Shown in pieces: positions 39,832-43,064 of a stretch of 64,000 bases of DNA. This stretch comes from Acidobacteriota bacterium (lineage in GTDB: Bacteria; Acidobacteriota; Terriglobia; 20CM-2-55-15): the NCBI GenBank assembly GCA_003223875.1, contig QHWY01000086.1:33233-97232 (forward strand), given 5' to 3'. Numbering within the stretch: position 1 is the first letter of the stretch; each line of letters begins with the position of its first letter. The position numbers and the translations under genes are program-made. The notes beneath the pieces were generated by a model that saw only the letters and a list, made by a program, of their open reading frames with translations, searched no databases and was not told where the DNA came from.

Positions 39832-41322
39832 CATCTAACATTCTGTCTCATTCTGGCACTCGCCGTTCCCGCCAGCGCCTCATCTTTCCTCATTAAAACC
39901 GAGTCCACGCCATCCGCCGCGCGCCTGGAACTCAACTTTCCCGAAGACACCCATTGCACAGCCAACGTCCTCGACCAACGCGAGTTGCTCCTTCAGTGCG
40001 ATCGCGCAATCGAACCGCCGCCAATGGGCGACGTCGTTACGAAATTGAACTCCTGGCTCGCCTGGATCAGCAACGGGTACGACACGCTTTTGATCCACGC
40101 CGCACGCGACTCGAGTTTTACGCTGTCTTCTGCCGGACCGAGGCAAATAGTGATTCAACTGACCCCAATAGATACCGAACGAACGTCCGAAGATTCGAAT
40201 ACCTTAGTTCCTGCTCTCCTCAAAAGCCGTCTACTCGCGGCGACCGGAAAACCTCGAGCAGCCGAGAAGGTCTTGCATCAAAGCCTCGTCTCGCATCCCA
40301 ACAATGGACAGCTGCTTGCGGAATTAGCGGAGCTTGAATTACGAGCCAGACGATGGCGCTACGCGACCGATCTTTATTCGAAGGCCTTACTCGATCAGCC
40401 CCAAAACGAGGATCTGATGACCTTTCGCAGAAAAATCCTTCGAGAACACGGACCCGCCGTTTCTTATGAAGCGAATGCCAAGACTTTGCAGACGGATCAC
40501 TCGGAGTTCGTGACATCAACCTCCGCCGATTGGAGGCTTTCGCTGCCGACCAAGCTAGGGCTTCGGATCGACCAAAACCATTTTCGGTCTTTAGAACCAT
40601 CGCAGCCAAACGCACGAACACATATCCGCAACCGCATCGAAGCTGCGCTTCAGCATGATTTTCTCAATGGATCGATCGTCAACGCGGCAATGGTGAATAA
40701 CGGACGGGAGACCGGAGCCCAGCTTTCTTATAGCCGGCCAGACATGTACGGCACGACGCATGTCGAAACAGGTTACAGCATCCCGTTCTGGGATCTGTTG
40801 TCGAGCCTTGAAGGTAACGGCGTACGGGACCGGATTACAGCAGGACGCATGCAGCAGATTTCGCAAAGAATAACAGCGCAATTCGATGCGTCATTAAATC
40901 GCTATCGCATGGCCAATCAGGTTCTGGCGCGCACTTATGGCGCCAATGCCGGCGTTAATTACGTTATCCGCCGGCAGTACCCGACCATCGAACTCGACTA
41001 TCTGTTCGATATCGAGAAACATGCGGATCACCGGCCGTACGCCGGTTTTCCATTAAGCAACAGGAATGTCCATGCAATCGGAACCGCGGTCGCCACTCCG
41101 ATCGGAACGAAGTCGGAGCTATTGGCTTCGGGCGGCATGTCTTTCGATATCGATGGTGGAGAAGGGCCCTTCGTCGCCGGCCGCTTCAATCGGCATTTCA
41201 CCGATCGGCTCTCGGCCGAGGTTTGGACTGAGAGACGGCATAATTCCATTCTTACTGGACGCGTCGTCACAAGCGTCGGCGTGAAAATTGTGTTCGCTTT
41301 CGGTGGGAAGGATACAGAGTGA
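39832..41322 (+). CDS. Outer-membrane beta-barrel porin-like protein with N-terminal TPR segment (PelB C-terminal-region-like); translation start unresolved
   Basis: A good signal peptide (LTFCLILALAVPASA) is encoded right after the MITE, but no ATG/GTG/TTG lies upstream of it outside the MITE. The nearest in-frame ATG is 39625, inside the 3' end of the TPR gene. The C-terminal half alternates amphipathic beta-strands and ends VGVKIVFAF. Confidence 0.45.
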   Translation, partial: HLTFCLILALAVPASASSFLIKTESTPSAARLELNFPEDTHCTANVLDQRELLLQCDRAIEPPPMGDVVTKLNSWLAWISNGYDTLLIHAARDSSFTLSSAGPRQIVIQLTPIDTERTSEDSNTLVPALLKSRLLAATGKPRAAEKVLHQSLVSHPNNGQLLAELAELELRARRWRYATDLYSKALLDQPQNEDLMTFRRKILREHGPAVSYEANAKTLQTDHSEFVTSTSADWRLSLPTKLGLRIDQNHFRSLEPSQPNARTHIRNRIEAALQHDFLNGSIVNAAMVNNGRETGAQLSYSRPDMYGTTHVETGYSIPFWDLLSSLEGNGVRDRITAGRMQQISQRITAQFDASLNRYRMANQVLARTYGANAGVNYVIRRQYPTIELDYLFDIEKHADHRPYAGFPLSNRNVHAIGTAVATPIGTKSELLASGGMSFDIDGGEGPFVAGRFNRHFTDRLSAEVWTERRHNSILTGRVVTSVGVKIVFAFGGKDTE

Positions 41323-43064
41323 TGCGCAAGACGTGGTGTGGCTTCAGACAATCCGCGATCATCGAAACCTCCTTATATCTAGGCATCGCTCTCCTCATCG
41401 ATCAAATTAGTTTCAGCGGTAATCGTTTCTGGACGATCTCGCCACACCCGTTCTGGCCGATCGTTCTTCTGATCAGCGCGCAATACGGCACTTCCGAAGG
41501 ACTCTTCGCGGCTCTAGCGGCAACAATTGTTTTATTGACCGGCAAACTACCCCCGCAAACGCTGTCGCAGGATCTGTACGAGTACATCTTCTACATCAGT
41601 AAGAATCCCCTGCTGTGGTTCACTGCAGCAGTCCTGTGGGGCGAATTACGCGGCCGGCACGCCAATGAAACCAGGGCAATCCGGGAAGAACTAGAGGCTA
41701 CAAAAGACCACGCTCTCCAGGTCGATGCCGCCTACAAGCAGGTGGCGCAATTGAAAGAGAAGCTCGAACTGAAAGTAGCCGGCCAACTGAAGACCGCAGT
41801 TCGAATTTACGAAGCTGCCCGAGGCATTGACAAGCTGGAACCGGCACATGTGATGAGCGGCGTGTCCCAACTGGTACGGCTTGTCATGAATCCCGAGAAG
41901 TTCTCTCTTTTTCTATTGAAGAACGGCCGGCTCGAAGTCGCGACAAAAGAAGCCTGGAGCGCGGAGGACCCCTATTCTTTGGAATTCAGCGCGCAGAGCA
42001 CCATTTATCAGGAAATCATTGGACGGCGCCGCTGCCTGTGCTGCGTCAACCGCGACGAGGAAATCATGCTGGGGAGCGAAGGAATGCTGGCCGCGCCTCT
42101 CGTGAATTCGGAAACGGGCGAAGTTCTTGGAATGATGAAGATCGAGAAACTGGGCTTCGCCGACCTGAACTTGTCCAGCGTTCAAACCTTCAAAGTGCTC
42201 TGCGACTGGATTGGAACCGCCTATGCGAACGCCCTCAGCTATAAAGATGCCCTCGCCGAAAAAATATTCGACCAGAGCACGTGCCTTTTCTCATACGGAT
42301 TCTTTGAGCGTCAGACCGCATTCCTGTCCAATATCGCCGAGCGCGTCGGATTTGACATATCGATGATCGTCTTGCGGCTCGACAATCCTCATGACTTGAC
42401 GGATGAGCAGCGCAGCATTTTGCCGGGGATGGTCGGTAAGGTCGTTCAGAAGTGTCTTCGCAAAACCGATCTCGCCTTTGAACACCGGCAATCGGCTTCG
42501 GAACATTACATTGTCTTACCGAACACATCATTGGAGGACAGCCAGACTGTCTGCCATAAGCTGCTCCGTAAACTTTCGTCTCTCATGCCTTCGGAATTAC
42601 GTCATGCCCAATTCTCGATGACTGTTCAAGCTCTCTATCGACATGACCGGCAGCCAACCGTACAATCTGTTGCGATTCCCGCAGCTCATGGATTATTCCC
42701 CGCCTCCTCATTCGAATGGCATTCGAACTATTTGACTGTGCTGGCGAGACGTATCGGATTTGATATTTCGGTCATCTCGATTCGCCCGGATAGCACCCAG
42801 GACTGGAAATCTGTAACAAAAGCAGTTGGAACGGTGGCCGGGCTGTATCTCCGTGAAATCGATCTTGCATTCGAGAAATCAGAACCCGACGGCGTGTTCA
42901 CGATTTTGCTACCCCATACGACGCGCAGGCAAGCAGACATCGTCTCAGGCCTCTTGGTCGCCCGAATAAATGACGAGCTGGAAAAGAACAACGTCGACGT
43001 GAGTGTCACAGTCGGGATTGAAAAGTTGAACGTTGAAGGTCTAGAACCGGTGTTGCATGTCTAA
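41319..43064 (+). CDS. PelD-like inner-membrane c-di-GMP receptor candidate (TM + GAF-like + two degenerate GGDEF-like modules)
   Basis: 4 N-terminal TM helices, a coiled coil and a GAF-like region. Two repeats, RVGFDISMIVLRLD...LRKTDLAFEHRQSASEHYIVLP and RIGFDISVISIRPD...LREIDLAFEKSEPDGVFTILLP, align to the GGDEF fold with GGDEF replaced. Confidence 0.5.
   Translation: MMRKTWCGFRQSAIIETSLYLGIALLIDQISFSGNRFWTISPHPFWPIVLLISAQYGTSEGLFAALAATIVLLTGKLPPQTLSQDLYEYIFYISKNPLLWFTAAVLWGELRGRHANETRAIREELEATKDHALQVDAAYKQVAQLKEKLELKVAGQLKTAVRIYEAARGIDKLEPAHVMSGVSQLVRLVMNPEKFSLFLLKNGRLEVATKEAWSAEDPYSLEFSAQSTIYQEIIGRRRCLCCVNRDEEIMLGSEGMLAAPLVNSETGEVLGMMKIEKLGFADLNLSSVQTFKVLCDWIGTAYANALSYKDALAEKIFDQSTCLFSYGFFERQTAFLSNIAERVGFDISMIVLRLDNPHDLTDEQRSILPGMVGKVVQKCLRKTDLAFEHRQSASEHYIVLPNTSLEDSQTVCHKLLRKLSSLMPSELRHAQFSMTVQALYRHDRQPTVQSVAIPAAHGLFPASSFEWHSNYLTVLARRIGFDISVISIRPDSTQDWKSVTKAVGTVAGLYLREIDLAFEKSEPDGVFTILLPHTTRRQADIVSGLLVARINDELEKNNVDVSVTVGIEKLNVEGLEPVLHV

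Follow-up and report, generated by a model that had tools for sequence, protein, structure and literature searches.

PelD's degenerate GGDEF domain binds dimeric cyclic diguanylate (c-di-GMP) at its I-site, for which the residues R367, D370, and R402 are needed (PMC8461298, PMC7112168), and the mechanism by which this binding activates the PelDEFG synthase is unknown (PMC8461298). In BcsE, two RxxD motifs on adjacent domains clamp an intercalated c-di-GMP dimer held by the GGDEF* I-site; the second motif fails alone but holds the second molecule (PMC7840130). Here, we describe a 64,000-nucleotide stretch of DNA from an Acidobacteriota bacterium (contig QHWY01000086.1 of assembly GCA_003223875.1, positions 33,233 to 97,232 of the forward strand), referred to as the window, in which a pelD-type gene encodes a protein with two degenerate GGDEF-type domains in tandem, named modules A and B. 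This tandem PelD represents a genuine domain duplication that recurs, and has so far escaped annotation, in a receptor family studied in depth, and a functional consequence of the duplication would be plausible. No PelD with two GGDEF-type domains was described among the top-ranked full-text literature results, whose coverage is incomplete and gives no proof of absence. The coordinates of the operon genes and of the parts of the pelD-type gene, numbered from the first nucleotide of the window, are collected in Table 1.

The first-pass annotation of the window, made from the letters alone, had proposed that the C-terminal part of this protein consists of two similar tandem segments. The internal similarity was found to be highly significant: a BLASTP comparison of residues 301–450 with residues 451–581 gave 32% identity over 114 residues (pairwise E 4e-14), and the Smith-Waterman score of module A against module B was 124, as compared with a mean of 26.4, a standard deviation of 4.4, and a maximum of 50 in 2000 shuffles (z = 22). 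The transmembrane and GAF parts scored just 23–26 against either module. Modules A and B are thus true paralogs, with a sequence similarity far above chance. The strings that had been quoted from the two segments were located at residues 342–355 (RVGFDISMIVLRLD) and 384–401 (DLAFEHRQSASEHYIVLP) and at residues 478–491 (RIGFDISVISIRPD) and 515–532 (DLAFEKSEPDGVFTILLP). An assembly artefact or a recent tandem duplication was ruled out, because the copies are too diverged (32% protein identity) and the same domain layout is seen again in separate assemblies and in distant lineages.

The same annotation had taken both segments for degenerate GGDEF-like modules, a view that agrees with our data for module A by sequence and for module B by its fold when modeled alone. 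Module A scored 20.7 bits against Pfam GGDEF (PF00990) at residues 317–436, below the gathering cut-off of 23.8 bits; however, the family profile matched solved GGDEF domains among the PDB sequences with an E of 1e-4, which supports the homology of module A despite the missed threshold. The match covers only positions 3–127 of the 161-position Pfam model, indicating that the elements at the C-terminal end of a complete GGDEF domain are missing, and each module is about 120 residues in size. Module B of the window protein gave no Pfam match, and GGDEF reached an E of 0.09 in only 1 of the 18 B modules scanned. The best PDB sequence matches of a profile restricted to module B were DosC (E 0.0044), 3ign (E 0.01), and WspR (E 0.05). 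A model of module B alone, built from a B-only alignment, reached a predicted local distance difference test score (pLDDT) of 89.1 and a predicted TM-score (pTM) of 0.81, and the top 50 PDB matches of this model in Foldseek were all GGDEF domains, with query-normalised TM-scores of 0.62–0.74 and a best E of 4.7e-7. As modeled, module B has the GGDEF, or nucleotidyl-cyclase, fold, and structure prediction, which had been put forward as a check, did not give the refuting result of repeats without this fold. The order of secondary-structure elements is the same in both modules (alpha-beta-alpha-beta-beta-alpha-beta). The GG(D/E)EF motif is found in neither of them; the pentapeptide, which had indeed been described as replaced, reads SASEH (residues 392–396) in module A and PDGVF (residues 523–527) in module B at the aligned positions, and therefore cyclase activity is not expected.

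The region upstream of the modules has the order of predicted transmembrane, putative coiled-coil, and GAF regions that was first described, with four hydrophobic helices between residues 11 and 108, a long helix to residue 170, and a GAF domain. The four helices (approximately residues 11–31, 44–56, 58–74, and 86–108) have a mean hydropathy of 0.76–1.59 and few charges, and were assigned from the AlphaFold2 (AF2) model, in which the second of them spans residues 46–56, and from hydropathy only. The residues H43-P44-F45-W46 and Q55-Y56-G57-T58 of this predicted membrane region are invariant in the family. In the AF2 model, the juxtamembrane helix runs on unbroken from the fourth membrane helix, and 21 charged residues lie between residues 111 and 170.

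The designation of the protein as a PelD-like receptor was supported by its place in the pelD slot of an operon that is found across phyla, by its fold, and by the names of its homologs. The full-protein AF2 model, built on 54 homologs with a mean pLDDT of 84.3, was matched by Foldseek to the P. aeruginosa PelD GAF-GGDEF crystals 4etx, 4eu0, and 4dn0 with E values of 1e-7 to 3e-7 over approximately 305 columns, so that the comparison with PelD structures, also suggested beforehand, aligned the whole crystallised fragment. GAF-GGDEF cyclases such as Dcsbis matched the full model equally well. Many homologs carry the JGI name “polysaccharide biosynthesis protein PelD”, and the cluster of the window protein itself, from Acidobacteria metagenome-assembled genomes, is labeled “hypothetical protein” by NCBI (PYS02670.1). 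The name PelD orthologue is used here on the grounds of position, architecture, and fold, as the protein does not belong to the curated PelD models.

The I-sites were mapped by HMMER alignments to solved GGDEF domains, and the equivalence to PelD R402 was drawn through the PleD-type “AERIR” helices of canonical GGDEF domains and not through a direct PelD alignment. The search for RxxD in each repeat, which had been recommended, returned RKTD at residues 381–384 of module A and REID at residues 512–515 of module B, and K414 lies at the PleD-R390 / PelD-R402 position of module A. In a survey of 266 collected family sequences, module A of the tandem proteins had RxxD in 54 of 56 and lysine or arginine at position 414 in 55 of 56, and the single-module proteins had RxxD in 147 of 186 and lysine or arginine at position 414 in 160 of 186. 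With RxxD and the basic residue at the R402 position near-universal in these sequences, module A is the conserved receptor module of the family. The RxxD of module B was present in only 21 of the 56 tandem proteins, all within 5 of 35 distinct tandem lineages, namely the cluster of the window protein, P0002, P0004, P0006, and the unrelated P0141. Within the clade of the window protein, where the B modules are approximately 30% identical, R512 and D515 are among only 21 invariant positions of the B region (residues 453–581), and position 549 stays basic (R/R/K/K). P0141 (618 residues) belongs to a different tandem lineage and has RxxD together with an arginine at the PleD-R390 position in both modules (RDTD/R in module A and RNTD/R in module B); judged by these motifs, it stands as the strongest natural candidate for a PelD in which both I-sites are complete.

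The explanation that fits best overall, and that we hold to be fairly probable on the strength of sequence, models, and analogy, is that this gene is orthologous to pelD and belongs to an Acidobacteriota pel operon, with module A as the primary receptor and module B as an accessory auxiliary site or partner. Judging from PelD of P. aeruginosa and B. cereus, the product of the gene would sit in the inner membrane as a c-di-GMP receptor without catalytic activity and would license the synthesis of Pel by way of the PelD-E-F-G complex. We infer that module A is the primary c-di-GMP-binding domain from RKTD and K414, both conserved across the family. Module B would be an old internal duplicate of module A that has kept the GGDEF fold but has no catalytic motif, and that has an accessory, dispensable role. 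In the clade of the window protein, it has kept RxxD but lacks the third basic residue, and is most likely no independent receptor; its role may instead be that of a secondary or auxiliary I-site, or that of a partner to module A within the same molecule, which would tune the hold on the intercalated c-di-GMP dimer at module A. The auxiliary-site reading is favored for this clade because RxxD is kept without the third basic residue and because BcsE offers a precedent. A more specific form of it, in which the RxxD motifs of modules A and B build an intramolecular tandem I-site that clamps one intercalated c-di-GMP dimer or binds two ligands cooperatively, appears unlikely to us. If true, such a site could give PelD another affinity or threshold, or a switch-like activation of Pel synthesis, and evolution would have tuned the c-di-GMP set-point for biofilm matrix production by gaining and losing module B repeatedly.

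Several observations weigh against this explanation. The curated PelD models PF16963 and NCBIfam PelD gave no match to the protein at E ≤ 1; PF16963 was found in 0 of 106 homologs in the precomputed Pfam column; and a phmmer search of the protein against PDB sequences returned no PelD and one marginal GGDEF match. The family profile reached the PelD sequence with an E of 0.2 only, on the GAF end, and the inter-domain geometry of the full AF2 model is unreliable (pTM 0.49). Further, module A carries a lysine (K414) where PelD has an essential arginine, and module B carries L545 at the position equivalent to R390/R402, with R549 one helical turn later. The first-pass annotation had also raised the idea that the duplication could change the c-di-GMP stoichiometry or add a second ligand; module B would then be a second, independent site for c-di-GMP or another nucleotide, which would double the stoichiometry or add a ligand input. 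The RxxD at the canonical I-site position, conserved in the clade, the intact GGDEF fold, and the arrangement of motifs in the unrelated P0141 are in line with this idea; however, L545 occupies the position of the R402 that is “absolutely required” in PelD (PMC8461298), a lone RxxD of the BcsE type is insufficient for stable binding (PMC7840130), and module B is the least constrained folded domain of the protein and is dispensable in close relatives, all of which make an independent site in the window protein quite improbable.

The absence of RxxD from module B in 30 of the 35 tandem lineages also weighs against our explanation and implies that the general role of module B cannot be I-site binding. 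A nucleotide-independent protein-protein or scaffold domain, which docks PelF or PelE or forms a pseudo-dimer with module A and in which RxxD is incidental, would account for the retention of the domain, with a confident fold prediction, in those lineages, and for the missing basic residue equivalent to R402. Such a role has a parallel in the degenerate GGDEF domain of BcsE, where BcsQ is bound by a distinct conserved surface without dependence on c-di-GMP (PMC7439463). In contrast, R512 and D515 have stayed invariant, and position 549 basic, despite the divergence of the B modules, and the repeated loss of module B without other change in the operon speaks against an essential docking role. 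We consider this scaffold function possible but doubtful for the window protein, and the better general explanation for the lineages whose module B has no RxxD.

The selective constraint on each region was examined by the ratio of non-synonymous to synonymous substitution rates (dN/dS), calculated by the Nei-Gojobori method between the window gene and the P0002 gene of locus L065 (84% amino-acid identity, dS approximately 0.39). The ratio was lowest in the GAF domain (0.08), followed by the coiled-coil helix (0.135), module A (0.14), the transmembrane region (0.34), and module B (0.385), while the linker between the modules, with a ratio of 1.6 over 18 codons, is unconstrained. Module B is thus under relaxed purifying selection and is not decaying, and no other folded domain is less constrained; in the clade of the window protein, the B modules have diverged to approximately 30% identity, as compared with 43–51% for the A modules. 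As module B is the fastest-evolving folded domain, repeatedly lost and invisible to Pfam, a functionless duplication remnant heading for loss might be considered. This is very improbable, since its dN/dS is well under 1 next to a linker that exceeds it, no frameshift or stop codon was found across the 35 tandem lineages, its fold is confidently predicted from a B-only alignment, and orthologous B modules persist down to such low identity. The C-terminal tail, which tandem and single-module relatives alike have kept, showed zero synonymous or non-synonymous changes over 12 codons relative to L065, and it overlaps the ATG of the pelE-like gene at 43057 by 8 nucleotides; its constraint may reflect translational coupling, as suggested by this overlap, or a functional tail.

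When 1.84 billion cluster representatives were searched exhaustively with the profile, 598 family members were found at E ≤ 1e-30, and both modules were covered in 21 of the 150 best-scoring members. As a tandem profile should place tandem proteins near the top of the ranking, the tandem form can be estimated to make up roughly 3% of the family representatives. Three classes were distinguished in the family: proteins with two modules (approximately 580–650 residues), with one module (approximately 450–490 residues; the majority), and with no module (approximately 300–350 residues). The no-module forms, consisting of the transmembrane region and GAF only, are encoded where the pel operon is otherwise complete, in Chlamydiota, Verrucomicrobiota, Nitrospirota, and Acetobacteraceae (loci L050 and L053–L061; proteins P0082, P0087–P0092, P0097, P0099, P0101, and P0103), which would imply a c-di-GMP-independent or differently wired control of Pel in those phyla.

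The B modules fall into several groups that mirror the clades of the A modules, and module B of the window protein groups with those of P0001, P0002, P0004, and P0006. A single origin of all tandem forms was rejected as a demonstrated result, as the B groups mirror the A clades and the B modules of P0008 and P0009 look closer to module A; the sequences are equally compatible with one ancient duplication followed by many losses and with several independent duplications. A distance-matrix tree of the shared residues 8–440 (200 bootstrap replicates) recovered a clade of the window protein and P0001–P0007 in 189 of 200 replicates, with the tandem P0006 basal within it. The tandem P0004 was sister to the single-module P0007 (198/200), and the group of the window protein was sister to the single-module P0003, to which the tandem form is 72% identical (189/200), and then to the single-module P0005 (200/200). 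Because the B modules of this clade are orthologous and the single-module forms nest inside it with 95–100% bootstrap support, the tree indicates at least three losses of module B in the nearest relatives, one of which, a single-module form, lies in an otherwise identical operon. The tail EPxLHV directly follows module A in the single-module P0003 (EPMLHV) and P0005 (EPALHV), suggesting that the indel is one clean unit of linker plus module. In P0005 (473 residues), a short segment between module A and the tail (…ADVH RLGIEPK EPALHV) can be aligned with the beginning of module B (RRIGFDIS), and may thus mark the deletion scar of a module B that was lost.

The genes around pelD are arranged in the order GH114 hydrolase, PelA-like open reading frame (ORF), TPR protein, PelB-type barrel, pelD-type gene, TPR/PelE-like gene, pelF, and pelG, and the pelD-type gene overlaps the stop of the upstream barrel ORF by 4 nucleotides. 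The equivalents of PelA and PelB are each encoded by two ORFs. The split of PelB was also found in the related loci L065 and L066, and is probably genuine because of this recurrence; L063 has a single PelB gene of 1423 residues. The same operon order was found in these three loci, and tblastn of the operon proteins showed that it was kept almost everywhere among 62 genome loci that encode homologs, which span Acidobacteriota, Azospirillum and other Alphaproteobacteria, Chlamydiota, Verrucomicrobiota, and Nitrospirota; the related loci were gathered with a 12-sequence alignment. The distant tandem forms P0055 (38% identity), P0039, and P0002, as well as the single-module P0003, occupy the same slot. 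There is no room for pelC in the operon of the window, where the barrel ORF runs to 41322 and pelD begins at 41319; in the loci of Azospirillum, approximately 750–1000 nucleotides separate the barrel from pelD, a space that could accommodate pelC. Downstream of pelG (region 47414–52298) lie genes for an X-Pro dipeptidyl-peptidase (S15; 47414–49492, + strand) and a DsbD-type transmembrane protein (49546–50289, − strand), both of which also follow the operon in L065, so that the synteny of the window with L065 extends beyond the pel genes.

Table 1. Features of the pel operon and of the pelD-type gene in the window.
Feature	Positions	Strand	Residues	Basis or remark
GH114 hydrolase (PelA equivalent, first ORF)	33428–34315	+	295
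PelA-like ORF (PelA equivalent, second ORF)	34312–36564	+	750	No Pfam match
TPR protein (PelB equivalent, first ORF)	36459–39662	+	1067	Overlaps second ORF
Porin-barrel protein (PelB equivalent, second ORF)	39580–41322	+	580	Overlaps first ORF
pelD-type gene	41319–43064	+	581	GTG start
N-terminal membrane region	41319–41648	+	1–110	AF2 helices, hydropathy, invariant columns
Juxtamembrane long helix, putative coiled coil	41649–41834	+	111–172	AF2 helix 86–170
GAF domain	41835–42254	+	173–312	Pfam GAF_3, E 2.4e-9 at residues 175–301; Foldseek matches to GAF structures
Module A, degenerate GGDEF fold	42267–42638	+	317–440	Pfam GGDEF; profile against PDB
I-site motif of module A (R381-K-T-D384)	42459–42470	+	381–384	Aligned to RxxD of 6d9m and 3ign
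K414 of module A	42558–42560	+	414	Aligned to “AERIR” arginine
Linker between modules A and B	42639–42692	+	441–458	pLDDT <50 at residues 445–456; predicted disordered
Module B, second degenerate GGDEF fold	42693–43025	+	459–569	Paralog of module A
I-site-like motif of module B (R512-E-I-D515)	42852–42863	+	512–515	Aligned to RSSD of DosC and WspR
C-terminal tail (...EPVLHV) and stop codon	43026–43064	+	570–581
pelE-like TPR membrane protein	43057–44196	+		TPR matches
pelF, GT4 glycosyltransferase	44193–45716	+		NCBIfam PelF equivalog, 464 bits
pelG	45717–47099	+		Pfam PelG, 410 bits

PelD variants that carry none, one, or two of the degenerate GGDEF modules, while their operons are otherwise identical, provide a natural comparative experiment on the cytosolic end of this receptor, and the two-module form could reveal whether an extra I-site-bearing domain shifts the ligand stoichiometry or the response threshold. 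A caution for annotation also follows: Pfam does not see the second domain, and public records label the whole protein “hypothetical” or “GAF domain-containing”, so that censuses of c-di-GMP receptors in soil phyla will undercount such domains.

As compared with P. aeruginosa PelD (PA3061; PDB 4DN0, 4DMZ, 4EUV, and 4ETX), the protein of the window shares the slot upstream of pelE-pelF-pelG, the predicted order of membrane helices, juxtamembrane helix, GAF, and degenerate GGDEF, and the RxxD at the I-site. It differs in its second degenerate GGDEF-fold domain, in the lysine that replaces the arginine at the R402 position of module A, in the short modules that lack the C-terminal GGDEF elements, and in a sequence too divergent for the PelD models. 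The GAF-GGDEF cyclases, such as Dcsbis (PA2771; PDB 4ZMU), are unlike it in that they are not encoded with pel genes and have the GG(D/E)EF motif and the C-terminal part of the domain that both modules of the window protein lack. E. coli BcsE (REC*-GGDEF*, with I-sites I and II) is comparable as a c-di-GMP sensor without catalytic function in a synthase-dependent exopolysaccharide system, and it has a GGDEF* similar to the one in PelD (PMC7439463); in contrast to the window protein, BcsE is soluble, its second RxxD lies on a REC-like fold, and its other domains are unrelated, while a ligand shared between modules A and B would be hypothetical. The PelD of B. cereus consists of SDR-like, transmembrane, GAF, and GGDEF* regions, and the streptococcal PelD has no GGDEF domain (PMC7112168), so that the cytosolic end is evolutionarily plastic in these proteins as in the family described here, whose no-module forms resemble the streptococcal PelD. 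Whereas the PelD variants found in the literature have gained an SDR-like domain at the N-terminus or are without the GGDEF domain, the form in the window has duplicated it.

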